NCBI RefSeq assembly: GCF_001830555.1
Contig: NZ_MIAM01000014.1
Location: forward strand, 1,332-65,331
Source of the DNA: Sphingopyxis sp. RIFCSPHIGHO2_12_FULL_65_19
GTDB taxonomy: Bacteria > Pseudomonadota > Alphaproteobacteria > Sphingomonadales > Sphingomonadaceae
DNA: 64,000 bases
Direction: 5' to 3'
Shown here: piece by piece, positions 20,781 to 33,953 of the stretch
Numbering within the stretch: the stretch's first letter is position 1
Layout: each line of letters starts with the position of its first letter
The notes under the pieces: generated by a model
Seen by the model: only the letters and a program-made list of their open reading frames with translations
What the model was told of the DNA's origin: nothing
The model's database searches: none
Made by a program: the position numbers and the translations under genes

Positions 20781-21536
20781 CTAGCTGACCTTCGCGGTCG
20801 GCATCAGCCACGCCGACCCCCGCCCGTTCAGCTTGTAGACAAAGCCCTCGCCGCTGCGCAGTGCGTTGCGCAGCCCCTTGACCAGCGGGCCGATCGACAC
20901 ATTGAGGTCGGCCGAGAACATCAGCATATAATCGCCGTCGACGGTCAGCTCCTTGCTGCCGTCGAGTTCGACGATGTCGATCTCCTCGACCGGGACCGGC
21001 GCCTCGACTGCAAAGACCCCGGCGCCCGCCATCTTGGGCTGGACCAGGCCATTGCCGCCGAGCACGCCCGCGACCGTGTTGTGACGGTGCGTGGTAAGGG
21101 CGATCCCCGACGAGCAGGCGTAAAAGGCCTTGTCGTCGAGCAGCAGCGCGTCGCCGTCGATCGCCCCGATGATGAAGTTGCGCCGCCCCGGTTCGGTCCA
21201 GATCGTCCCATGCCCCGAAAATTTCGTCGCAAAGGCCGATTCGCCCGTGCCCGCCGAGGCGAGCGCCCGGCTGAGGAAGCCGCGATCCTCGTGCTGCTGC
21301 ACGGTCGATTCGATCTTGCCGTGCATATATTGCAGCGCGCCGGGTTCGAGCAGGATGGCGCCGCCGGTCAGCGTGATGCACAGCTGGAAGATGTCGGTCG
21401 CCTCGGCGACATAATGAAAGCCGCCCTCGGCCGTCGGGATGCCGCGGGTAATCAGACGTTTTTCGACGAACCGATATTTTTCGATCCGCACCCCGCCGTC
21501 TTCGACGCTTTCTTCCAGTCTGCGAAATTCGGTCAT
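20781..21536 (-). CDS. AIM24-family protein
   Basis: EPGALQYMHG, GTGESAF, DDKAFYA, VDGDYML, SGEGFVYKLNGRG pattern. Confidence 0.7.
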   Translation of the reverse strand: MTEFRRLEESVEDGGVRIEKYRFVEKRLITRGIPTAEGGFHYVAEATDIFQLCITLTGGAILLEPGALQYMHGKIESTVQQHEDRGFLSRALASAGTGESAFATKFSGHGTIWTEPGRRNFIIGAIDGDALLLDDKAFYACSSGIALTTHRHNTVAGVLGGNGLVQPKMAGAGVFAVEAPVPVEEIDIVELDGSKELTVDGDYMLMFSADLNVSIGPLVKGLRNALRSGEGFVYKLNGRGSAWLMPTAKVS

Positions 21537-21567
21537 CCTCAGCCTCTTTCCTTATCGCGCGCGGGGC

Positions 21568-22053
21568 TTACCGGAACGGATTGTCGTCGTCCGAATAGCG
21601 TTCGTTGATGAATTGCGTGTTGTTGGTGAAGGCGTTGATATCGTGCTGCGCCAGGTCGCGCAGCATCGTATCGACTCGTTCCTGCAGCCGGTCGAGGCTG
21701 GCACCGAGAAGGAAACTCGCCGATTTTCCGGTCTTGCGAAAAATCTCGCCGCGGTGGCTGGCGGGCACGTCGATATAGCTCTGGACCAGCTGGGGCAGGT
21801 GGACGTCGCGCATCTGGCCGGTGTCGACACGGCTGAAGCTCGGCACCTGTTCGCGCTCCATCGCCTTTTCGACGGCTTCGATCGATTCCAGGATATGGGC
21901 GATCTTTGCCTGCGCGCTGTCGGGAATCCGGTCGTCCTGATAGTTGAAGGCTTTGGGCTGCGGCGCAGCCGGGGGCGACGGCGCCGCACGCTCGTTCGCC
22001 TGCGCTGCCCCCTCCCCGCCGAAAAGGCGGCCGAGCCGTCGAAACATGCTCAT
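21568..22053 (-). CDS. Small helical protein, probably an XpaC/KlaA-like partner of TelA
   Basis: True ORF starts MSMFRRLG. HLPQLVQSYIDVP...LDRLQERV...DINAFTNNTQFINERY resembles proteins encoded next to telA. The family call is tentative. Confidence 0.5.
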   Translation of the reverse strand: MSMFRRLGRLFGGEGAAQANERAAPSPPAAPQPKAFNYQDDRIPDSAQAKIAHILESIEAVEKAMEREQVPSFSRVDTGQMRDVHLPQLVQSYIDVPASHRGEIFRKTGKSASFLLGASLDRLQERVDTMLRDLAQHDINAFTNNTQFINERYSDDDNPFR

Positions 22054-22135
22054 ACCGTTGCCGCTTTCACCTCGTCCAAAAAATCGCCGTCCCTTCCATA
22101 GCCTTGCGCCGCAAGCTTTCCAAGAACAGCGAGAA

Positions 22136-23185
22136 TTAAAGCGACCCCAACGCCGACTGCTGCTGGCTGCCCAGCGCGTCGACCGAGGCGGAAACCTCGG
22201 CAATGGCCGACCGCAACGCCGCGACCTGCTGCGACGCCTCTGCGCTGTCGAGCGCGATGCGGGCATTGCCCGCCGCCGACGCGCCGCTCGCGCGATTGCC
22301 CAGCGCCGTCGCGGCGGCTGTGACACCGCCGATACGGTCGAGCACGATCTGCTGGTTGGCGAGCGTCTGCGCCGCGACGATGGCGGTCTGGAGCGCGGCC
22401 ACCGTGGTTGCGGAGGCGCGGTCGATGCCCTTGACCAGTTCCAGGTTGTTGGCGTGGACGATGCCGAGCATCGCATAGCTTTGCTGCGACACCGCCATTT
22501 GGGTCAGGAGGTCGCCGTGGCGCTGGCGCGCCTCGAACAGCGCGACCTGGCGCAGGCGCTGCGCCTTTGCGGGGTCGCGTGCGTCAAGCTGTCCCGCGAG
22601 CCGTTCAAACCGTTCGTCGAGGCTGGCGCACAGGCCGATCGCTTCGGCCAGGCTGGACAGCATCGGGCGGACCGTCCGGCGGTAGGCGGTCACGGCGATA
22701 TTGTCCTGAAGCAGCGTATCGCGGCTGGTCGCCATCGTTGCCAGCGCCGCTTCGATTTCGCCCTCGCTGTCGCGATAACGGTCGAAATAGCTGGCGAGCG
22801 CGTCGCCGCGCGGGAACAATCCCAGAAATTTGCGCGGTTTCAGCAATTCGTCGCCGATGCCGGGGTTGAGCCGTTCGAGCACGGCGCGCAGCCGCGCGAG
22901 CTGGGCATGGACCGCGGCGACCGCGCCTTCGCGTCGGCCGCTACGCGCCATCGCCAGCCGCGCCTGGTCGGACAGCGCCCGCACCTCCTCGGCGCCGATC
23001 AGGGCAATCCGCGCCGCCATGCGGTCGAATTCGGGGCTTTGCGCCTCGATCGCGACGAAGCCGCCCGCATATTCGCGCGCGACCGCCTTGATCCGCGCCG
23101 CGGTCGCCTCGCCAAGCGCAAACTCGCCCGCCGGATCCTGCGCCGGTCCGCCCGGTCCCGGGGGTTCGAGTTGCAGTCCGTTCAT
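22136..23185 (-). CDS. Toxic anion resistance protein (TelA family)
   Basis: 349 aa coiled-coil; RKFLGLFP...YFDRY, LLQDN, DLLTQMAVSQQ, NNLELVKGIDRA...TVAALQTAIVAA. Confidence 0.8.
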   Translation of the reverse strand: MNGLQLEPPGPGGPAQDPAGEFALGEATAARIKAVAREYAGGFVAIEAQSPEFDRMAARIALIGAEEVRALSDQARLAMARSGRREGAVAAVHAQLARLRAVLERLNPGIGDELLKPRKFLGLFPRGDALASYFDRYRDSEGEIEAALATMATSRDTLLQDNIAVTAYRRTVRPMLSSLAEAIGLCASLDERFERLAGQLDARDPAKAQRLRQVALFEARQRHGDLLTQMAVSQQSYAMLGIVHANNLELVKGIDRASATTVAALQTAIVAAQTLANQQIVLDRIGGVTAAATALGNRASGASAAGNARIALDSAEASQQVAALRSAIAEVSASVDALGSQQQSALGSL

Positions 23186-23201
23186 CGCCGCGGCCCTGCG
23201 A

Positions 23202-24104
23202 TCATGCGACCTTGACGCCGGTGTGCTGGTCGGGGCCCGCCACGCCGTGCGTCTGCGCGCGCTTGACGACCATCCCCGCCCAGGGGGCGTGCGTCGCGGG
23301 TTCGCACATGCTGCCGTTGCGGCCGAACACGGCTGGCGCCTCGTGGTTCAGGATCGCGCGCGCCTCGGCCATTTCCTGGACGTCGGGGCGATAGACCGAA
23401 TGGATGATCGCGATCTGGTCGGGGTGAATCGCGGTCTTGGTCAGCAGGCCATGCTCGATGTCCTGTTCGACCTCGCGGCGCAGCACGTCGGGCGCGGCGA
23501 AATGTTCAAAGACCGGGGCCGCGACCGAGAATCCGTGCGGGATAAAGGTGCCCGCAATGTCGCGAATGACACTGCCCAGCGGGCCGTCATAGGCGGTCCG
23601 GTATCGCGAACGGCGGATGCCGAGCAGCCCGAGGATGTCGTTCCCGCCGATCCGCACCGCCGACACGCGTTCGGCATAGGGTTTGAGCTGGTCGCAGAGC
23701 CGGGCGAGCGCGAGCCGGTCGAACGCGTCCTCGCCCTCGATCGTCGGCATGATGCGATGATCCTCGTGCATCAGCGCGGTCAGCCAAACGGGCAGCGACT
23801 GGGTCGTCACCTTGGGCAGCACAAAGCCGTCGATGCGGTCGATGCCCTTCATCTTCAACAATTGCGTCAGCATCCGGAAATCGCGCGGCCGCACATAGAC
23901 CGACAGCGTCGGCGATTTGGCGACGAGCGCGCGGAGCAGTGCCGCAAGATCGTCGAGCGCGGCATCGACCTGGTCATCGCGAACCGAATCCTCCAGGCAC
24001 ACGACCATCGACCGCAGGTCGTCGATCGCCCCATAGGCCATGGTGCGTGCGGCGGGGTTTGTTGCCGGCACATACAGGGTGGCACCCAGCTCGACAGCGT
24101 TCAT
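23202..24104 (-). CDS. CitE-like (HpcH/HpaI aldolase/citrate lyase family) protein of the Ter biosynthetic module
   Basis: LGATLYVPAT, CLEDSV, VLPKV, RIGGNDILG, KTAIHPDQI; ATGA overlap with the upstream gene. Confidence 0.85.
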   Translation of the reverse strand: MNAVELGATLYVPATNPAARTMAYGAIDDLRSMVVCLEDSVRDDQVDAALDDLAALLRALVAKSPTLSVYVRPRDFRMLTQLLKMKGIDRIDGFVLPKVTTQSLPVWLTALMHEDHRIMPTIEGEDAFDRLALARLCDQLKPYAERVSAVRIGGNDILGLLGIRRSRYRTAYDGPLGSVIRDIAGTFIPHGFSVAAPVFEHFAAPDVLRREVEQDIEHGLLTKTAIHPDQIAIIHSVYRPDVQEMAEARAILNHEAPAVFGRNGSMCEPATHAPWAGMVVKRAQTHGVAGPDQHTGVKVA

Positions 24105-25228
24105 TGCTGGTCTCCTCCCAGATCCTTGATAATGGTCACGGCGCGATAGCTCCGCAAGTTTCTTTCGATGACGGGAACCCCCGCGGCATCGGCCAACAGG
24201 ACGATATGCGCGACGTCGGCATCGCCGCGTCGCTGGACATAGATGCGGTCGGGAACGCGGCGCAAGATGGCGCGCGTAGCCTCTGCAATTCCCGGTTTGA
24301 TGCGGTTGAGATCGCGAACCCCGCATTCGGCCGCAATCGCCGCGATCGCCCCCTCCGCCGCCGCGCGGACTTCGGTCGCGGCCGCAGCGGACCATGGCGC
24401 CGTTTCCGGCTGCCACGCGCCCGCGCCCTCGATCGCGTCGATATAGGCGCGGCTGCGGTCGCTTGCGGCGTGGTCGGACAGGACAAGGCAGGCGTGGAAA
24501 TCGTCGGGGCCGACGAGGGCGTCATTTCGCACCGACCGGCTGACCAGCCCCGAAACGATGCCGTTGAGCAGGCCGCCGGGGATGACATAATCGTCGAAGG
24601 TCGCGGCCAGGTCGGCGCGCCCCGCGGGGTCGGCGACCACGGCCAGGAACGGGGCGAAGCCGCTTGTCCCCGATGCGAGCGCGCGGTCGAGTTCGCCGCG
24701 GATTGCGCCCTTGCCGGTCCACCCGTCGACGAACACGGCGTTCGCCGTGCCGTGTCGCCGCGCGATATAGGCCAGCGCATTGTCGTCGATGCCGCGGCCG
24801 CGCAGGATGCTGACCGAATAATGCCAGGCCTCGACCCCCCGTCGGCGCAGCGCGCGCGCCAGCAGGATGCCGATCGGCGTCCCGGCACGCGCGAGCGAGA
24901 TCAGGACGCAGCTGGTCGCGGTCTGCGAGCGATCGCCGATCGCGCGCGCAAGCCGTTCGACATCGTGCCGGACCCGTGCCGCATTCGCCGCGAGCGCCTG
25001 GTCATACAGGCGCAGGTAGCGCGCATCGGGCACCGATTCGGCCGACAGCATCTCCGAATAATGGCGCGCGCCCGACTGGATCAGCCGTTCCTTTTCGGCG
25101 ATTGCGGTCGGCTCGATCCGCGCCGGGTTGAGCAGGAAGATGACATCGCCGGGATCGTAGGAGCCCGAAAAGGTCCAGTTCCCCTCGGCGTCGCGGTAAC
25201 CGTCGCCAGCATGGCCGGGCGTCGCCAT
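24101..25228 (-). CDS. PRTase-fold protein with C-terminal PELOTA/L7Ae-like RNA-binding domain (StiP-like)
   Basis: SGSYDPGDVIFLL, SLARAGTPIG, FVDGWTGKGAI, IKPGIAEATRAILRRVP; TGATG coupling to the HAD gene. Confidence 0.8.
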   Translation of the reverse strand: MATPGHAGDGYRDAEGNWTFSGSYDPGDVIFLLNPARIEPTAIAEKERLIQSGARHYSEMLSAESVPDARYLRLYDQALAANAARVRHDVERLARAIGDRSQTATSCVLISLARAGTPIGILLARALRRRGVEAWHYSVSILRGRGIDDNALAYIARRHGTANAVFVDGWTGKGAIRGELDRALASGTSGFAPFLAVVADPAGRADLAATFDDYVIPGGLLNGIVSGLVSRSVRNDALVGPDDFHACLVLSDHAASDRSRAYIDAIEGAGAWQPETAPWSAAAATEVRAAAEGAIAAIAAECGVRDLNRIKPGIAEATRAILRRVPDRIYVQRRGDADVAHIVLLADAAGVPVIERNLRSYRAVTIIKDLGGDQQ

Positions 25229-25968
25229 CAGTCGATCCAGCCGTTGCCAAGCGCGATATGCGACCAGAGCTGGGTGCCTGTCGGGACCGCCGCGAAATCG
25301 CACAGGTCCATGAAGCCGACGTCGGACACGCTGTCGCCGATGCCGATGATCGGCTGGTCGGGGCGGGCGGTGCGGATATGGTCGATCAGGTAGCGCGCGG
25401 CGTGCCGCTTGCTGAGCCAGGGCGGCAGATAGGCCAGATTGTTGCCATTGCGGTGACAGCGCCAGCCGGTCGGCACCTGCGGCGCCAGTTCCTGTTCGAG
25501 CACGGCCAGTTCGCCCGCGTCATGCGCGTTGCTCTTGACGACGATATAAAGCGTCAGGCCATTTTCCTCGACCGCCCAGTGGCGAAAACGATCGGTGCAG
25601 AGCGCGTCGGTAAGCGCATGATAGACGGCCTCGACCGGCGCCCCGCGGCGGGCTTCGGTTTCCAGGCGATCGTGCCATTCGCGGTCGAGCGCGCCGTCGT
25701 CGCCAAGGATACAGCCGCCGTTCGAGCAGATCGCCGGCGCCTGCCCGATATCGACCCGCGCAAGGACATCGCGCCCGCGCGCGGTTACCGGGATCACCGT
25801 CCCCGTTTCGAGCCAGCGCAGGAAATGCTGCTGCATCGGCGTCGCAAATCCGCTGGGGCTGCCGTCGAGCAGGCTGCTCATCTGTCGCAGTCCGTCCATC
25901 CCCGGCGGGCATTTGGGCAACGTCTGGAACAGCGTGTCGTCGAGGTCGGTCAGGATGACGGGGGTCAT
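25228..25968 (-). CDS. HAD-superfamily phosphatase
   Basis: DLDDTLFQT, VTAR, SKRHAA, GDSVSDVGFM. Confidence 0.85.
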   Translation of the reverse strand: MTPVILTDLDDTLFQTLPKCPPGMDGLRQMSSLLDGSPSGFATPMQQHFLRWLETGTVIPVTARGRDVLARVDIGQAPAICSNGGCILGDDGALDREWHDRLETEARRGAPVEAVYHALTDALCTDRFRHWAVEENGLTLYIVVKSNAHDAGELAVLEQELAPQVPTGWRCHRNGNNLAYLPPWLSKRHAARYLIDHIRTARPDQPIIGIGDSVSDVGFMDLCDFAAVPTGTQLWSHIALGNGWID

Positions 25969-27131
25969 TCGCCCTCCCCCCCGGCATAAAGGCACGCGAC
26001 GACATCGACGGGCACCGACGACCCGAGGTCCGCCAGCGCGGCCGCCGCCTCCGCCCGCTGGTCGGCAGGCCGTTCGGTGACGATCACCACCCGGTCCGGC
26101 GCGTGGGCCAGCATATTGTAAAGGAAACAGGGCGCGCCGCTGTCATAGCTGTCGCGAAACGTCGATTTGCTCGCCATGGCGCCGCCGATCAGCGCGGGGC
26201 TGCGGGTGATGCACTGCACCGCGGCGATGCCCCCCTGGCGCTCGATCTCCTCGGCGACCAGCAACGCTTCATAACTATGTTCGCCTTCGCCCAGCACCAG
26301 CACGCGCTCGCCGGGAGCGGCAGCGACCGCCGCGCGCCGGGCGCGTTCGGGATGCAGCAGGCCGGTGCGGCTTTTCATGCCGGCATCGGGCGCGGCGCCC
26401 GGTGCGTTGCTGCCCGCCGCCAGTTCGGCGGGCGGCGCCGCGGTCGCCGCCGACCAGCGCATCCGCCCGCTGACGATCGCCCGCGCCGCGGCAGGGCGCG
26501 GCATCGCATCCAGATAGCTGCCGTCGCTCCAGTCGGTGATGCAACAGGTTTCGATCCGTTCGAGCCGCGGCATCGCGCCCAGCAGCGCGGTCGCCGCCGC
26601 GACGAAGGTCGCGCCGGTCGAACATTCGTCATCGACGATCACCAGCGCGCGGGCCTCCGCCACTCGCGCGCGGATCGCCGGATCGGCGATCTGGACAAGG
26701 TGCGACGTCGCGTGGCTGTGCCCTTCCTCGAACCGGGCGGCGACCTCTGCCCCCGCCACGCGCTGCCGCGAGGATTGCAGATAGACGGCATCGGCGCCCG
26801 GATGCCGCGCCTGCCATGCGGCGAAACAGCCCTGCCCCAGCGCGGTCGCGGTTTCGGCCATGCCAAGGAAGACGACCGGACCCGGCAGGTCGCTTCCCAC
26901 GCGGGCAGCAAGCCCGTCCATTGCCGCGCGCATGGCGCCGGGACGCGCGGGCAGGTGGCGGCCGAGGACGCGCGACACGATCAGGAAGCCGCGGCGCGGA
27001 TTGGCGCGCGCCGCCACATCGCAAAAGGCCTCGAGATCCGCGTCGCCATCGACAAACAGGTCCAGCGTGCCGGTCGACAGGTCTACCGTCATTGCCGGCG
27101 CCGCACGCGTAAATTGCATAGGGTAACTCAT
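25965..27131 (-). CDS. Phosphoribosyltransferase with C-terminal TRSP domain
   Basis: RANPRRGFLIVSRVLGRH, GMAETATALG, VIVDDECSTGATF (PRPP loop), CITRSPA. Confidence 0.85.
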   Translation of the reverse strand: MSYPMQFTRAAPAMTVDLSTGTLDLFVDGDADLEAFCDVAARANPRRGFLIVSRVLGRHLPARPGAMRAAMDGLAARVGSDLPGPVVFLGMAETATALGQGCFAAWQARHPGADAVYLQSSRQRVAGAEVAARFEEGHSHATSHLVQIADPAIRARVAEARALVIVDDECSTGATFVAAATALLGAMPRLERIETCCITDWSDGSYLDAMPRPAAARAIVSGRMRWSAATAAPPAELAAGSNAPGAAPDAGMKSRTGLLHPERARRAAVAAAPGERVLVLGEGEHSYEALLVAEEIERQGGIAAVQCITRSPALIGGAMASKSTFRDSYDSGAPCFLYNMLAHAPDRVVIVTERPADQRAEAAAALADLGSSVPVDVVACLYAGGEGE

Positions 27132-27206: not shown

Positions 27207-28346
27207 TTACGCGCTGACAATTATGCTGACAACCGAATCGCGCAGTCGGCCGACCAGGCTGCGCCGGTTGTTGTCGGTCGATAGCGGCACCGCCGTCCCT
27301 TCGACCCCCGACGCCGCCAGCATTTCGTGGACCAGGCTGACCTTGATGCCGAAATTGACATTTTCGCTGATCGCGCCGCGATCGCGCAGGTTGCCATGCG
27401 CCAGCGACGAAGAGGTGATGCCGACGAGATTGCCATATTCGTCGAGGATTGCGCCGCCCGACGATCCCGACCCGATCGGCGCGGTGAACTGGAACCGGGC
27501 GACATCGCCTTCCCAACCCTTCAGCCCCGACACATTGCCCGTCGAAACCTTCAGATCGGCACCGAGCAGGTCCATCAACGGGTAACCCGCCGCCAGCACC
27601 GCCTCGCCCAGCCAGATCGCCGCGCTGTTGCGCAGGGGCAGCGGCGTGCCCTGAACATCGCCCTGAAGGATCGCGAGGTCGTGCAGCGGATCGACCGCGA
27701 GCATGGTCAGCGCCTGTTTGCCGCGGCCCAGCTTGAAATCGCTGCCGCCTTCGATGACATGGGCGTTGGTGACGACGATGCCCGGCGCGACGAGAACGCC
27801 GCTGCCCGAACCGAGCGGGGTGCCCGGCGGCGCGGTCCGGCGCTCGCCGCGCTCGCCGCCTTCCCATCGTTCGCGATTTCCATCGCGGCGCTGGCGACCC
27901 GGAATGGCATCGACCGAAAAGTTCCGCGCCCGCGCAAAAGCCTCGATCCCGAACGTATAGCCTTCGTTGGCGACCTTCACCCGCCGTCCGCCGTCGCGCA
28001 TATAGGCTTCGGCGATGATCACCGCCGCCAGCTGGTCGAACGGCTTGGGAAAGTCATAGCTGGTGCCGCCGAAATCGACGGTGACGGGATAGCTGTCGTT
28101 GACGAAGCCGCCGGTCCGGTCGTCGGCGATATAGAGCAGGATTTCCGCCTGGTCGCCCAGGTCGGCCATTGTCGAGAGGCGCCATTCGCCCGGCGCGCCG
28201 CCACGTTCGAGCGGCTGGAACGCCCCCTCGCGTGAGACGGCGACGACGGTGATCCGGTCGGCATCGCGGCCGCCGATGCGGATCGTGCAGGCGGCGTCGG
28301 TGGCGACGGCAAGTCGTTCGCCCGGCTGCGCATTCTTCATCGCCAT
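27207..28346 (-). CDS. Trypsin-like serine protease with a degenerate TerD-like N-terminal domain
   Basis: Catalytic triad VTNAHV / HDLAIL / GSSGGA. The N-terminal AAVIIAEAYMRDGGRRVKVANEGY resembles the TerD C-terminal strand. No signal peptide is evident. Confidence 0.8.
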   Translation of the reverse strand: MAMKNAQPGERLAVATDAACTIRIGGRDADRITVVAVSREGAFQPLERGGAPGEWRLSTMADLGDQAEILLYIADDRTGGFVNDSYPVTVDFGGTSYDFPKPFDQLAAVIIAEAYMRDGGRRVKVANEGYTFGIEAFARARNFSVDAIPGRQRRDGNRERWEGGERGERRTAPPGTPLGSGSGVLVAPGIVVTNAHVIEGGSDFKLGRGKQALTMLAVDPLHDLAILQGDVQGTPLPLRNSAAIWLGEAVLAAGYPLMDLLGADLKVSTGNVSGLKGWEGDVARFQFTAPIGSGSSGGAILDEYGNLVGITSSSLAHGNLRDRGAISENVNFGIKVSLVHEMLAASGVEGTAVPLSTDNNRRSLVGRLRDSVVSIIVSA

Positions 28347-28376
28347 CCCCCCACCATCGTCATGCCGCCACCATCG

Positions 28377-29417
28377 TCATGCTGCCACGGGGCGGACGAC
28401 GGTCGAAAACGCCACTTCGGTATCGATCGCGGGCCGGTCGATCGTCGCGGCCGACAGCCGCCCGGTGAGCAGCCCGGCCCAGTCGGCGACAAGGCCGCAG
28501 CCAACCTGATCGGCATACACGACGCCGCCGGCCGGGCGCGCGTTGATTTCGAGCAGTTTCCACGTGCCGTCGACGGCGCGGCGGAACTGCGCATTGACCA
28601 GACCGTGGAGCGTGAAGCGGTCGACGATCGCGGCGACGACAGGCTCCAGCGGGTGGCGGGTGACGATATGCTGACGCGCGGTGCCCAGCTTGGTGCGCGC
28701 GGCATATTTCAACAATTGTCCCGCGTCGGCGAGAATGTCGAAAGAGATTTCGGGACCGGGAAGATAGGCCATTGCGACGATCTCGTCGATCGGCCCGCGC
28801 TGTTCCTGGTCGCGCAGTGCCGCCAGATAATGGTCGGGACGAATCCGGCGCCGTTCCGAATCCTGGAGATGCGCCATCGGCGACACGTCCGCCAGGCGCC
28901 AGAAGCCAAGGCCATTGACCCCCTGTCGCGGCTTGACGCACGGCGCGGCGTCGTCGCCGTCCGCCATGTCCGGCCAATCGGCGAGCAACGCCGCAAGGTC
29001 GTCGCTGCCCCGCACCAGATGGGTCGGGAGGTGATAATCCTCCCCCGCGAGCGCCGCCGCAAACGCATATTTGTCATCGAGCAGTTCAAGCGTCGGAACC
29101 GCCGCGGGCAGGTGGACGCGGCAGGGAAGGTCGGTCGCCGCGATCAGCTTGCGCCGCCGGGTGGGCACGAAGATATCGACCGCGTGGCGATCGATAATGT
29201 CCCGCACCCAATCCAGATAGGCGGCGGGATCGTCGGCCGCGCCGTCCGCGCCGTCCGCGCCGCCATCAATCCAGGTCGCGGTCGGTCCCGGATAATGGGC
29301 GCTCATCGGCGAAACGCTGACATAGACGTCGAGCGACGCGTCGGCGGCTCGCATCAGCGCCGCGATCGGGGCGAGCGAAAATCCGCGATTGAACCAGATC
29401 CGCACCGGCTGCGTCAT
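28377..29417 (-). CDS. ATP-grasp ligase of the Ter biosynthetic module
   Basis: WFNRGFS, CVKPRQGVNGLGF, YLPGPEISFD, LLEINARPAGG. Confidence 0.85.
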   Translation of the reverse strand: MTQPVRIWFNRGFSLAPIAALMRAADASLDVYVSVSPMSAHYPGPTATWIDGGADGADGAADDPAAYLDWVRDIIDRHAVDIFVPTRRRKLIAATDLPCRVHLPAAVPTLELLDDKYAFAAALAGEDYHLPTHLVRGSDDLAALLADWPDMADGDDAAPCVKPRQGVNGLGFWRLADVSPMAHLQDSERRRIRPDHYLAALRDQEQRGPIDEIVAMAYLPGPEISFDILADAGQLLKYAARTKLGTARQHIVTRHPLEPVVAAIVDRFTLHGLVNAQFRRAVDGTWKLLEINARPAGGVVYADQVGCGLVADWAGLLTGRLSAATIDRPAIDTEVAFSTVVRPVAA

Positions 29418-29447
29418 CGCCAAAGGGTCATGGCACCCGGCGCGCCA

Positions 29448-30029
29448 TCAACCGAGGTTGACGCCCAGGCTGCCGGCAAGGCCCGAAAGCCCGCTCGCCC
29501 AGCCTTCGCCGATCGCCTTGACCTTGATGTCGCCCTGCGGCCCGCGATAGAGTTCGACGAAGATCAGCGAGGTGTTGGTGCTGCCGTCTTCGGACAGGTC
29601 GAAACGTGCCAGTTCCTTGCCGTCGGCATCGTTTAAGACGCGCGCATAGGCGTTGGAAACCGATCCGAAATTCTGGCGGCGTTCCTGCCCTTCATGGATC
29701 GTGACCGCGACGACGACCTTTTTCACATCGGCGCCCAGTCGGCCGAAGTCGATCTTGATCGTCTCGTCGTCACCGGCGCCATCGCCGGTGCGATTGTCGC
29801 CGCCATAAACGACCGAGCCGTCGGGCGACGCCTTGTTGTTATAGAAAATGAAATGGGCGTCGCTCAGCACCTTGTCATTGCTGCCGACGACGAACGCCGA
29901 CGCGTCGAGGTCGAACGCCGCGCCATCGGTCTGCCGCACGTCCCAGCCCAGCCCGACCGTGACCGACGACAGGCCCGGCGCCTCCTTGCTGAGCGAAACA
30001 TTGCCGCCCTTGCTCAATGACACCGCCAT
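29448..30029 (-). CDS. terD: TerD-family protein
   Basis: [36 protein letters not shown]. Confidence 0.92.
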
Positions 30030-30098
30030 GTCCGTTCCCTTTCCGAAAAAAATGCGGCTACCGTCGGCGATCACGCAGCCGGTAGCCATGGGCATCCA

Positions 30099-30674
30099 TC
30101 AACCGACGTTGACGCCAAAGTTGCTCGCGAGCGGGCCGAGCCCGCCCTTGAAACCCTGTCCCACCGCGCGGAATTTCCATTCGCCGGCGTTGCGATAGAC
30201 TTCGCCCAGGATCATCGCGGTTTCGACCGATGCATCTTCCGACAGGTCGTAGCGGACGATTTCGGTCCCCGTCTTGGCATCGACGATGCGGATGAAGGCG
30301 TTCGACACCTGGCCGAAGCTCTGCCCGCGCGATTCGCCGTCGTGGATCGTCACCGCCACCGCGACCTTTTCGACTTCGGCCGGGGTCTTCGACAGGATGA
30401 TCTTGATCTGCTCGTCGTCGCCGTCGCCTTCACCCGTGCGGTTGTCGCCCTGATGGATCACGGCGCCGCCGACATCCTTGTTGTTGTAGAAACAGAAATC
30501 GCCGTCCGAACGCACCTTGCCGTCGCCCTTCAACAGGAAGGCCGATGCATCGAGGTCGAAATCCTGCCCGTCGGTCGCGCGGACGTCCCAGCCAAGGCCG
30601 ACGATGACTTCGTCGAGACCGGGCGATTCCTTCGACAGGCTGACGTTGCCGCCCTTGGAGAGAGAGATTGCCAT
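30099..30674 (-). CDS. terD: TerD/TerE-family protein
   Basis: [54 protein letters not shown]. Confidence 0.93.
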
Positions 30675-30742
30675 CGAATTTGTCCTTTCTGATTCCGATC
30701 GAGTGGCCCGGATCACCGGGCCACCGTCACATGGGGGTTGTT

Positions 30743-31798
30743 TCAGGCCGCAGCCGAGGCTTCGCCCTCGCCAGCCGAATTGGCCCGGTTCCAGCGGACC
30801 GACGACCAGAAGGCGATGCCGATCAGCACGGCACCGATCAGGCCGGTGATCACTTCCGGAATATGCTGGAAGGTGTTGATGTACATGATCACCGCGAGTG
30901 CGAGGATGGCATAGAAGGCGCCATGTTCGAGGTAGCGATATTCGGACATCGTGCCCTTGCGCACCAGAAAGATCGTCATCGAACGCACGAACATCGCGCC
31001 GATGCCGAGGCCGATGGCGATGATGATCAAATTGTTGGTCAGCGCGAAGGCGCCGATGACGCCGTCGAACGAAAAGCTGGCGTCGAGCACTTCGAGATAG
31101 AGGAATGCACCGAAACCGGCCTTTGCCACGTCGCCGGTCGACGGCGTCGGGGGTTCCAGAATATGGTTGACGATCTCGACGACGATGAAGGTCAACAGGC
31201 CGCCGATCGCCGCGATGATGAAGGTCAGCGCGTCGGCATCGGACAGCATCGTCGAGGTTCCCCAGGTGGCGAGCAACACCAGCCCGATCGCCACCGCGTC
31301 GATATCGGCGACCTTCGCAAGCGGCCGTTCGATCGCGGCGATCCAGTCGACCTCCTTGTCGGAATCGAAGAAATATTTGAGGCCGACCATGCCCAGGAAG
31401 GCGCCGCCAAAGCCCATCAGCCCGATATGCGCGTCGCTGACGATACGCTGATATTCGGTGGGTTCATTCAGCGCGAGCTTGAACGCCTCGATCGGGCCAA
31501 GACCCGCGGCGACCATCACGATTACCAGCGGGAACACGATACGCATCCCGAACACCGCGATCGCGATACCCCAGGTGAGGAAGCGTTGCTGCCACACCGG
31601 GTCCATGTCCTTGAGCACCGATGCGTTGACCGCGGCGTTGTCGAACGACAGCGACACCTCCAGCACCGACAGCACGATGCAGATCCACAGGATCCCCAGC
31701 ACGCCGTCGACCGTGCCGGTGAGTTCCCAGCCGTACCAGCCGCCCAATGCGAGCGCCACCACCGAAAAAAGCAGTGAGCCGCCGAAATGTTTCAACAT
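30743..31798 (-). CDS. TerC-like integral membrane protein (DUF475)
   Basis: [43 protein letters not shown]. Confidence 0.88.
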
Positions 31799-31866
31799 CT
31801 ACCTATGTCCCCTTGCCGCCCTGTGCGGCGCTTTTCGTCTTGCCGCCCGGCGCGGCGTTGTCGTCG

Positions 31867-33045
31867 TCAATCTTTCGATCCCGCTGCCCAGCGCAGGATG
31901 ATACCGACGTCGTCGGCATATTCCTTCTGGTCACGGTAATAACGCATGTGCCGCTGCATCCGCAGGCTGCCACCTTCGTTTTCGAGAAGCGCTATACCGC
32001 AAAGGCGGCAATTGTCGCGCCCTTCGTCAAGCCGGACCTCGATCTCCGGCTGGCCGGGCACTGTCATCCGCACCACGCCGTCGGTCTTGGTCCAGTTCGG
32101 AACCCCGTCATAGATGAGCGCGAAGACCGCGATGCGTTTGATCTGGTCGAAATAGCGCCCGTTGACGCGGATCGTTTCGCCCGCCGACACGGCGCCCGTC
32201 CGGTCGTCGCCCGACAATTGGATGAAGGGTTCGCGTTCATAGTCGCCGAACGAGCGGCCAAGGGCCTGGATCACACCCTTGTACCCGTCCTGGAGTTCAA
32301 ACAGGACGCCGAGATCGAGGTCGATGTTTTTCGCGCCGCCACCAAAGAAGCCGCGCTTCTGGTCGGCCTGGCTCCAGTTGAGGTTCAGCACAATCTCGCC
32401 GAACGTCGCCCCTGTTTTCTTGAGGCTGACGCTCGGGCTCGATTTTTCGAGGGTGATTTTCTTGAGGCTGACCGGCGCCGAAGGCGCTGGTGCAGGTGCA
32501 GGTGCAGGTGCGGGCGCCGGTGCGGGCGTCGGAGCCGGTGCAGGCGCATCCGCCACCTCGCCGCCGAAATGGGCGATCAGGCTCGCCAGCCCGCCCGCAA
32601 AGCCCGCGGCAATGGTGCCGCACTTCCAGCCCGAGCTGTGCCGGTAAAGCTCGATCATCATCACCGCCTTTTCGTCGGTCAGATGCTCGGCGACGTTGAA
32701 CTCGGCCTTGCCCTGGTCGATCGACACCAGCAACGGCCGCGCCTCGGCGATCGGGCGGCTGTCGTGCGTCGCGGTAAAGACGATGCGGTCGACCGTCGCG
32801 GGCAACGCGTCGAGATCGAGCGTGAACACCGCCTTGTCCGACGCGGACGCCAGGCTGATCGCGCCTTCGGGCGAGCGGGCGTTGGAGAACAGCACGACAT
32901 AGCGATCATCGCCGATCTTGCGCGCGGCATCGAGCCCGAAGGCAGCGATATCGACCCCCGCCATCCCGAAGGACACCGCCACGTCGCAGCGCCCGCCGAT
33001 CCCGAGATCGGACAGGCCGCGCTTTTCACCTTTTTGCAATTGCAT
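31867..33045 (-). CDS. TerD-like domain + Pro/Ala linker + TerA-like domain
   Basis: N-terminal degenerate TerD; (AP)n linker; C-terminal VLNLNW...DLDLGVLFEL...IQALG...GDDRTG...GETIRVN. Confidence 0.82.
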   Translation of the reverse strand: MQLQKGEKRGLSDLGIGGRCDVAVSFGMAGVDIAAFGLDAARKIGDDRYVVLFSNARSPEGAISLASASDKAVFTLDLDALPATVDRIVFTATHDSRPIAEARPLLVSIDQGKAEFNVAEHLTDEKAVMMIELYRHSSGWKCGTIAAGFAGGLASLIAHFGGEVADAPAPAPTPAPAPAPAPAPAPAPSAPVSLKKITLEKSSPSVSLKKTGATFGEIVLNLNWSQADQKRGFFGGGAKNIDLDLGVLFELQDGYKGVIQALGRSFGDYEREPFIQLSGDDRTGAVSAGETIRVNGRYFDQIKRIAVFALIYDGVPNWTKTDGVVRMTVPGQPEIEVRLDEGRDNCRLCGIALLENEGGSLRMQRHMRYYRDQKEYADDVGIILRWAAGSKD

Positions 33046-33108
33046 GCATCATTTCCCACTGGCTTCGCGGCACACCCGCTGCAAAGCGACGCCGATTGTT
33101 CGGAAGGA

Positions 33109-33696
33109 TCAGATCAGGCGCCGCGACTGGTCGACCAGTTGCTGGACGTGGACGCCCGCGGCACGCTCGCCGATCGCCTTGTAAACCCATTCCCCGCCGC
33201 TGCGTTTCAGCGAGGCGAGGATCAGTCCGGTGTAGGAGCCGCTTTCACTGATGTCATAACGCGCAAGTTCGCGGTTGGTCGACAGGTCGATCACGCGGCC
33301 GAACGCATTGGCGACCTTGTCAAAGGTCTGGCCGCGAAAGCTGGTCACCGTCAGCACGAGCGTTTCCACCGATGCGGGCAGCCGCGTCAGGTCGACCGAG
33401 ATCGTCTCGTCATCGCCGTCGCCTTCGCCGGTCAGATTGTCGCCGCTGTGGCGGACCGAACCATCGTCGCTGGTCAGTTTCTGGAACCACACCGTGTCGA
33501 CGACATTGCCCGCCGCATCGAAAACAAGGCAGGATGCGTCAAGGTCGATGTCGGCGGTGCCGCCCGACAGTTTCGCGAAGAATCCGGTCGGCTTGACCAT
33601 GTCCCAGCCCACGCCCAGGGCGATCCGCGTCAACCCGCCTGCCCCGGCCTCTTTTGCCAGGCTGACGCTCGAATTTTTGTTCAGCGAAATAGCCAC
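33109..33696 (-). CDS. TerZ/TerD-family protein, first gene of the Ter operon
   Basis: GTG start after GGAGG; [24 protein letters not shown]. Confidence 0.88.
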   Translation of the reverse strand: MAISLNKNSSVSLAKEAGAGGLTRIALGVGWDMVKPTGFFAKLSGGTADIDLDASCLVFDAAGNVVDTVWFQKLTSDDGSVRHSGDNLTGEGDGDDETISVDLTRLPASVETLVLTVTSFRGQTFDKVANAFGRVIDLSTNRELARYDISESGSYTGLILASLKRSGGEWVYKAIGERAAGVHVQQLVDQSRRLI

Positions 33697-33710
33697 GCGC
33701 TTCACCCTCC

Positions 33711-33737
33711 TTACGACAATCAACAAATATGTCGTAA
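33711..33737. promoter_or_regulatory. Perfect palindrome TTACGACA-N11-TGTCGTAA abutting the RBS of the Ter operon
   Basis: 8-bp perfect inverted repeat in an AT-rich leader; operator or RNA hairpin. Confidence 0.55.
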
Positions 33738-33953
33738 CTGATATAAATTGGCCGATGGCCTGTCCATATCTTTGCGGTCGGGCTTCATAAGAAAAAATGA
33801 ATGAAATAAATCTGCAATTCAAATTCTTAATATAATATATGCCCGGTCCGGAAACGGCGCACCGCACGAATAGCAACGCAGCGCAATCCTTTAGGGAAGT
33901 CCCGGCACGAAATTCGCGGCGAGCGCCTGCGCAAGGCCCGCAGGGTCAGGCCC

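Follow-up and report, generated by a model that had tools for sequence, protein, structure and literature searches.

What is a trypsin-fold protease doing in a ter operon, and what is the domain fused to it? The question is raised by an open reading frame (ORF) in Sphingopyxis sp. RIFCSPHIGHO2_12_FULL_65_19, contig NZ_MIAM01000014.1, of which a stretch of 64,000 nucleotides (positions 1,332 to 65,331) was analysed; this stretch is referred to below as the window, and its own numbering is used throughout. Ter operons are widespread and are linked to resistance to tellurite, phages and colicins. To our knowledge, their mechanism is still unresolved and the nucleoside-like Ter metabolite that has been predicted has never been identified. 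A cytoplasmic protease with a recognition domain of the Ter family would be among the few ter components with an easily assayed activity, and learning what it cleaves, what it binds or which ligand activates it could open the Ter system to biochemistry.

An earlier note on this DNA, made from the letters alone, placed the gene between an ATP-grasp gene and a phosphoribosyltransferase (PRTase) gene and ascribed to its product a degenerate TerD-like N-terminus without Ca2+ motifs, an Arg/Glu-rich linker, an intact trypsin triad and neither signal peptide nor PDZ domain. This description is borne out. The window gene belongs to a family of TerD-trypsin proteins despite having escaped Pfam; the fused domain is of the Ca2+-less type found at the N-terminus of TerA, and the same module occurs outside ter loci as well. 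These findings sharpen the experimental questions raised by the locus and reveal no new kind of system.

The N-terminal domain is a diverged TerD domain

Sequence methods converge only on the last beta-hairpin of the N-terminal domain (N-domain), that is, on the stretch AAVIIAEAY...FGIEAFAR where the earlier note had seen the clearest similarity. The Pfam TerD profile (PF02342) matches residues 96-139 over just its last ~44 positions (11.8 bits, E 0.17), and the gathering threshold of 25.3 bits is not reached by the window N-domain; divergent relatives of the window protein score 13-18 bits over the same hairpin. BLASTP aligns residues 97-146 with residues 156-203 of a TerD protein of the window (E 0.005). 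When a hidden Markov model (HMM) profile of the N-domain was used to search the sequences of the PDB, no TerD protein was recovered, merely weak unrelated beta-sandwich proteins, so that fold and profile-profile methods were needed.

The comparison of an AlphaFold model with TerD, which the earlier note had proposed, came out clearly on the side of homology. The AlphaFold2 (AF2) model of residues 1-150 has a predicted local distance difference test score (pLDDT) of 92.7 and a predicted template modelling score (pTM) of 0.88. The PDB entries found by Foldseek at E <= 0.001 are solely members of the TerD family (9a6r_B, or SCP2, 3ibz and 2kxt; TMq 0.60-0.64), followed by the TerD homologues 2qz7 and 2qng at E ~0.02 and by unrelated sandwiches from E ~0.1 onwards. 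Chain B of 9a6r, the B. subtilis 'SCP2', is the TerD-family protein YceC.

Profile-profile alignment with hhalign connected the window-type N-domain to the TerD domains of the window at 70-76% probability, with a local score (37.7) higher than those of all 100 column shuffles (mean 12.8, maximum 28.6). A further chain of homology runs through a set of related fusion proteins, subfamily C, described below: the window-type N-domain aligns with theirs almost end to end (97.7%, E 1.4e-12), and theirs aligns with canonical TerD at 99.0% (E 7.5e-18). In BLASTP, the window protein (P0001) and P0185, of subfamily C, share 37% identity over residues 107-379 (E 3e-41), in an alignment that takes in the final TerD hairpin as well as the linker, protease and tail. 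A first local hhalign comparison had aligned the N-domain to the C-terminal half of TerD alone, with a big insertion; global profile alignment and the fold search speak for a match from end to end, in which the Ca2+ loop is simply deleted.

The N-domain is thus a true TerD homologue that has diverged below the Pfam threshold, and we hold the architecture and homology of the fusion protein to be as good as certain. The same beta-sandwich fold, and a terminal hairpin with a GF-G motif, are common to the window N-domain and canonical TerD (Klebsiella 2kxt, Streptomyces 3ibz, B. subtilis SCP2/YceC 9a6r), but the former is ~45 residues shorter, has both Ca2+ loops deleted or replaced and is fused to a protease. 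Its conserved motifs are YIxDDRxGGFVNxxYP, PxPxxQLAAVI and KVxNEGFTFGI.

The N-domain resembles that of TerA

The three Ca2+ motifs of TerD (GDNxTG, DxDxS/A and GDDE) are all present in the three canonical TerD genes of the window and absent from every family N-domain analysed (0/26). None of the three patterns occurs either in the N-terminal domain of the window's TerA-like protein (TerA-N, its first ~165 residues), a domain whose membership of the TerD family is accepted. In profile comparisons, TerA-N comes out as the canonical domain nearest to the N-domain, for the window type (90%, E 1.7e-6) and subfamily C (99.4%, E 1.6e-21) alike, and a tblastn search with P0185 matches the TerA N-terminal domain at E 1e-7. 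Since the Ca2+ motifs are missing from 26/26 N-domains and from TerA-N, and TerA-N is the nearest relative, the N-domain is a TerA-N-type TerD domain without the Ca2+ site. TerA differs in carrying a second TerD-like domain in place of the protease. Taken together, TerA-N and the protease-fused domain suggest the existence of a distinct, Ca2+-independent subclass of TerD domains.

An apparently active S1C protease, predicted to be cytoplasmic

Pfam Trypsin_2 matches residues 181-310 (E 1e-20). The motifs carrying the catalytic triad, TNAHV (H196), HDLA (D223) and GSSGG (S296), are kept in 26/26 family members. The nearest solved and curated relatives, in the PDB and NCBIfam respectively, are S1C proteases of the HtrA/DegS/DegQ type; the best NCBIfam score is 62.4 bits, as against a cut-off of 416 for the DegP/DegQ/DegS/HtrA equivalog or subfamily. 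The domain is homologous to that of HtrA/DegS/DegP/DegQ (MEROPS S1C), with the same triad and GxSGG motif, and is apparently a catalytically competent S1C-type serine endopeptidase.

HtrA proteases have PDZ domains that serve as their regulatory or targeting domain. In contrast to HtrA/Deg proteins, the window protein has neither PDZ nor export signal and bears its accessory domain at the N-terminus. Pfam finds no PDZ match in the fusion protein, where 34 residues remain after the protease domain; occupying the position of the HtrA PDZ, this conserved tail is predicted to form a helix and a terminal strand, with the motif RRxVVxRLRxSVVSIxV. Neither a signal peptide nor a transmembrane (TM) segment is apparent, because Kyte-Doolittle hydropathy over 19 residues peaks at 1.35 and the protein begins with a hydrophilic stretch. 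In the AF2 model of the N-domain the beta-sandwich starts as early as residue 3. The fusion protein is therefore predicted to be cytoplasmic, as the earlier note had it.

The linker between the two domains contains 8 Arg, 4 Glu, 6 Gly and 4 Pro among its 33 residues, and pLDDT falls below 50 over residues 152-170. Within the family, the length, sequence and composition of the linker vary.

The PADLOC models of defence systems gave a match between residues 180-343, in the protease domain, and the C-terminal third of RT-Protease_XI (E 1.7e-12); this search yielded no full-length defence match, and no other protein of the locus matched convincingly. The logic of the reverse transcriptase (RT)-protease of type XI retrons, a recognition domain combined with a trypsin-like protease in a stress or defence locus, is like that of the window protein; however, the latter has no RT, SAVED or CARF domain, and the similarity is one of generic protease fold only. 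SAVED- or CARF-linked proteases are sensor-domain/protease effectors of anti-phage systems.

A catalogued family of ter operons

The TerD-trypsin architecture is not new. A survey of serine proteases published in 2008 listed 'TerD-Tryp' of Pseudomonas syringae (YP_273108.1) as uncharacterised (PMC2605481). Subfamily C comprises at least 120 database proteins, all of them already annotated with PF02342 and PF13365, under names that include 'TerD domain-containing protein' and 'trypsin-like peptidase domain-containing protein', and their genes occupy the same operon slot. Such fusions resemble the window protein in domain order, length (~380-400 residues), linker, protease motifs and tail, and they too lack the Ca2+ motifs. 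They differ from it in belonging to a separate clade and in matching Pfam TerD far better (31.8 against 11.8 bits); the window-type TerD domain has its own DDRxGGFVN motif and, in the window, an ATP-grasp gene lies directly upstream. Two Sphingomonadales ter loci hold a subfamily C protein of 387-404 residues in the same slot, namely P0185, the source of the 31.8-bit score, and a relative scoring 22.6 bits.

An unrooted maximum-likelihood (ML) tree of the family shows three groups: subfamily C, clade A (98/94) and clade B, the last as two lineages. The split that sets A and B together apart from C has 100/100 support, and the window clade is sister to C, not nested in it. The window gene is accordingly a diverged clade A member of a family that had been catalogued before. 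Should the root lie on the C branch, the fusion would have arisen in a ter operon and clade B would have left it.

More than 400 homologues were found, with conservation spanning the full length of the protein, from which we conclude that the gene is real. The genera represented are Sphingopyxis, Sphingomonas, Sphingobium, Novosphingobium, Erythrobacter/Porphyrobacter, Croceicoccus and Asticcacaulis, and the gene takes up the same place in the operon in loci from Asticcacaulis, Croceicoccus, Sphingobium, Novosphingobium, Sphingomonas and metagenomes. The earlier note had called for a census of the architecture in ter loci. A sample of 401 Sphingomonadales genomes was examined, in which a strong PRTase_2 match was taken to denote a ter biosynthetic locus. 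Ten genomes had such a match; six of them carry a window-type gene, two a subfamily C gene and two neither. Within this sample the window-type N-domain is confined to those six genomes, all with the ter biosynthetic module. With 8 of 10 ter loci carrying it, the TerD-trypsin gene is a common accessory of these loci, not a one-off insertion. A scan of genome contigs recovered six full-length loci, the remaining matches being dominated by the generic HtrA motif. A class-wide genome search with the full protein yielded protease-domain matches in other architectures and no further full-length copy, and the plasmid collection gave one weak match, to the protease domain only.

The gene lies inside the ter operon in clade A loci L032-L044 and in subfamily C loci L124, L125, L129 and L130. 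The usual order in clade A is TerD-TerD-ATPgrasp-gene-(DUF4236)-PRTase_2; in subfamily C it is TerD-TerD-gene-(DUF4236)-PRTase_2, with no adjoining ATP-grasp gene and, in L129 and L130, none within 9 kb. In three genus-g309 loci the order is TerD-TerD-protease-PRTase_2, with no ATP-grasp gene in between. The earlier note's phrase "inserted inside" the biosynthetic module is thus misleading: in two subfamilies the slot is the junction between TerD and PRTase_2, and ATP-grasp often does not adjoin it. Across the other ter loci, no neighbour of TerD-trypsin genes is as constant as PRTase_2. The position within the operon is not fixed, since a divergent clade A gene of one Sphingomonadales genome (L128:9487-10572, genome G648; 45% identity) is found behind StiP and the lyase, where the biosynthetic module ends, and not at the TerD/PRTase_2 junction. 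The family is, in sum, an accessory component of alphaproteobacterial ter operons, at or near that junction.

A DUF4236 gene (~350-385 codons) separates the fusion gene from PRTase_2 in some loci of both kinds (L038:11164-12219 in clade A, L129:10195-11349 in subfamily C). Gaps of ~1.1 kb are seen at the corresponding position in L041, L042 and L044. DUF4236 was considered as an obligatory partner and rejected, as it has no match in the 99.6%-complete assembly to which the window belongs.

Relatives outside ter loci

An N-domain profile search over 1.84 billion representative proteins returned 31 proteins. Five of these, long and repetitive, scored via many short stretches and were set aside as repeat artefacts, not relatives. 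The others, fragments excepted, are ~370-380 residues long and by virtue of this length appear to share the fusion architecture, which Pfam confirmed in eight.

Clade B proteins are 40-44% identical to the window protein and have the same reduced N-domain and trypsin domain. Their genes form part of a block made up of a ClpX-like ATPase, a thioredoxin and the protease, with OmpA on the opposite strand (Table 1). Around the block lie genes for UDG, Endonuclease_NS, an Eco57I-like methyltransferase, Macro-NADAR and proteins of 2000-2500 residues. The contigs are from uncultured organisms, reach 1.27 Mb and have 59-67% GC, save for L120 (44% GC), whose contig stops just upstream and contains only the part from the protease through OmpA to the downstream genes. 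Neither ter genes within 8-10 kb nor an adjacent ClpP gene were found at clade B loci. The block may represent a distinct ClpX-linked system. A phage origin for clade B is unsupported: GenBank phages gave no tblastn match, and IMG/VR gave protease-domain relatives only.

A second departure from ter loci concerns P0126, a long-branch member of clade A (L131:1750-2883), which lies among GDPD, PhoH, P63C, DUF559 and NERD genes. This neighbourhood (PhoH, P63C, NERD) looks phage- or island-like. No ter genes are found nearby, making P0126 an exception to the ter placement of the other clade A loci.

Possible roles of the fusion protein

The explanation that we find best overall, and hold with slightly more belief than doubt, is that the window protein is a regulated cytoplasmic TerD-fold/trypsin protease of ter operons. 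The TerD-fold domain would substitute for PDZ as a targeting or regulatory element, joined to the protease by the flexible linker. It might bind a Ter protein (a TerD, TerA or TerZ paralogue, TelA or TerC) or, alternatively, the nucleoside-like product of the adjacent PRTase, HAD and lyase enzymes, and such binding would target or gate proteolysis when the Ter system responds to stress or phages. The fusion protein would then act as a regulated protease and not as a bulk quality-control enzyme. The Ter-linked regulatory role, to which the conserved context points, is the tentative part of this proposal, and taken by itself we hold it to be somewhat less likely than not.

The gene is likely to be co-transcribed with the ter operon, since the gaps that flank the ORF (30-36 nucleotides upstream, 75 downstream) are short and contain no terminator-like site. 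Several observations weigh against the proposal. The AF2 model of the whole protein has a pTM of 0.47, so that the interdomain geometry is uncertain, and it renders a portion of the protease domain poorly. Two of the sampled ter loci, L126 (genome G669) and L127 (G602), are of the subfamily C type and have TerD followed directly by PRTase_2, without the protease; the core Ter system must therefore be able to work without the gene, and the two loci constitute natural 'knock-outs' open to phenotypic comparison. Finally, clade B and P0126 have no TerD gene within 8-10 kb. Their placement implies that the N-domain need not dock on Ter proteins. The earlier note had proposed that the protease is recruited to TerC/TerD and serves there as a proteolytic switch or effector; as an obligatory arrangement or general rule, this is somewhat weakened by the occurrence of the same N-domain outside ter loci.

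The sharpest form of the proposal, akin to the second-messenger-activated defence proteases, makes the protein a ligand-gated effector: the TerD-fold domain would be the receptor for a nucleoside-like metabolite of the Ter module, whose binding would activate the protease against cellular targets. In the ter loci examined the gene always adjoins or sits within the metabolite module, with PRTase_2 as the most constant element; the strongly conserved loop motifs DDRxGGFVN, PxPxxQL and NEGFTFGI would fit a putative binding site, and the protease domain resembles the retron type XI effectors. Ca2+ is the sole ligand known to us for any TerD domain, and its site is deleted in the window N-domain. 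Moreover, neither clade B nor subfamily C conserves DDRxGGFVN, and no biosynthetic genes surround the relatives found outside ter loci. On the other hand, a sensing role for TerD domains has been put forward, with specialised nucleotide derivatives produced by Ter enzymes as the signal (PMC7159879; PMC7824862). On this evidence we consider ligand-gated activation rather unlikely, and it is distinctly unlikely that the Ca2+-less TerD-fold domain is the receptor for the product of the Ter PRTase, HAD, ATP-grasp and lyase enzymes in particular, with this ligand switching the protease on. Were that so, ter operons of this kind would be small-molecule-signalled protease systems for defence or stress, the protease would for the first time make the Ter metabolite accessible to assay, and the clade B proteins, linked to ClpX and thioredoxin, would be re-wired versions of the same sensor-protease.

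A generic cytoplasmic housekeeping or quality-control protease, in which the N-domain is merely a structural or substrate-binding beta-sandwich without any Ter-specific role, would agree with the surroundings of clade B (ClpX and thioredoxin) and of P0126 (a phage-like block), where ter genes are lacking, and with the two ter loci devoid of the gene. It accounts poorly for the retention of the gene inside ter operons by both subfamilies A and C across many genera, separated as these are by a 100/100 split, for the membership of the fused domain itself in the Ter family, and for the confinement of the window-type N-domain to genomes with a ter module in the Sphingomonadales sample. The conserved context disfavours a purely generic protease, an idea which the out-of-ter relatives keep alive; we judge it quite improbable. 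A maturation protease, processing a precursor or a pathway enzyme together with the preceding ATP-grasp ligase, is suggested by the position of the gene directly after ATPgrasp_Ter in the window and in L037-L044, and pairs of ATP-grasp and protease genes are known from peptide-modifying pathways. Yet the coupling to ATP-grasp is not kept in the genus-g309 loci or in subfamily C, L129 and L130 included, and the lack of conservation of this adjacency disfavours such a role. No gene resembling a precursor peptide was seen either. DUF4236, an occasional neighbour, is unmatched in the assembly of the window. We regard a maturation role as very unlikely. That the protein is an exported HtrA/DegP-like periplasmic protease, or its N-domain an unrelated beta-sandwich, would be in keeping with the periplasmic Deg/HtrA proteases being its best matches in NCBIfam and among PDB sequences, with the Pfam TerD score far under its cut-off and with the failure of the HMM search of the PDB to find TerD. 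Export is contradicted by the absence of signal peptide, TM segment and PDZ, and the NCBIfam score is 62 bits against 416; the beta-sandwich begins at residue 3, and the TerD fold and transitive homology are established. Either variant is extremely improbable.

Start codon and organisation of the operon

Homologues open with MKxxQPGxRL, and a GGGGGGA run resembling a Shine-Dalgarno sequence lies just upstream of the third codon of the ORF; for both reasons translation probably begins at Met3 (ATG at 28338-28340), giving a product of 377 residues. In the region 28275-28346 of the window, the database gene call from the same genome (P0002, 356 residues) departs from this and begins at the Ile24 codon. 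This call drops 21-23 conserved N-terminal residues, comprising QPGxRL and the first two strands of the TerD-fold domain, and its start is probably mis-called.

From 5' to 3', the operon reads TerZ-like, TerA-like, TerC, TerD, TerD, ATPgrasp_Ter, the fusion gene and PRTase_2+TRSP, followed by HAD-like, StiP+PELOTA, C-C lyase, TelA, a conserved 302-residue ORF and AIM24. The genes flanking the fusion are those that the earlier note had named. In the downstream module (20781-25995), listed in Table 1 as longest ORFs, several true starts probably lie further in.

Table 1. Features of the fusion gene and its ter operon (window coordinates), and loci of the clade B block (locus coordinates).
Feature	Position	Strand	Basis or remark
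Whole ORF, TerD-fold/trypsin fusion	27207-28346	minus	379 residues from first ATG; stop codon 27207-27209
N-terminal TerD-fold beta-sandwich, residues 1-145	27912-28346	minus	AF2, Foldseek, hhalign
Predicted disordered Arg/Glu/Gly/Pro-rich linker, residues 146-178	27813-27911	minus	pLDDT, composition
S1C (HtrA-like) trypsin-fold domain, residues 179-345	27312-27812	minus	Pfam Trypsin_2, PDB HtrA/DegS matches
Catalytic His196 codon	27759-27761	minus	
Catalytic Asp223 codon	27678-27680	minus	
Catalytic Ser296 codon	27459-27461	minus	
Conserved C-terminal tail, residues 346-379 (34 residues)	27210-27311	minus	common to subfamily C
ATPgrasp_Ter, Ter biosynthetic module	28377-29423	minus	upstream neighbour; Pfam; 36-nucleotide gap to Met3
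PRTase_2+TRSP phosphoribosyltransferase	25965-27131	minus	downstream neighbour; Pfam; 75-nucleotide gap
TerD	29448-30095	minus	upstream ter core
TerD	30099-30716	minus	upstream ter core
TerC/DUF475	30743-31798	minus	upstream ter core
TerA-like two-domain protein	31867-33045	minus	upstream ter core
TerZ-like TerD	33109-33876	minus	upstream ter core (whole core 29448-33876); longest ORF
HAD-like	25228-25995	minus	downstream module; longest ORF
StiP+PELOTA	24101-25303	minus	downstream module; longest ORF
C-C lyase	23202-24416	minus	downstream module; longest ORF
TelA	22136-23185	minus	downstream module; longest ORF
Conserved 302-residue ORF	21568-22476	minus	downstream module; longest ORF
AIM24	20781-21536	minus	downstream module; longest ORF
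Clade B locus	L119:8412-11746		
Clade B locus	L121:6407-9796		
Clade B locus	L122:6392-9706		
Clade B locus	L123:6377-9730		
Clade B locus	L132:7417-10786		

The junction between the ATP-grasp and fusion genes contains a tandem duplication with a period of 17 nucleotides (window 28351-28382): on the minus strand, GCATGACGATGGTGG at 28382-28368 is repeated at 28365-28351. The duplication covers the ATP-grasp stop codon and stops just short of the G-rich ribosome-binding site and start codon of the protease gene.

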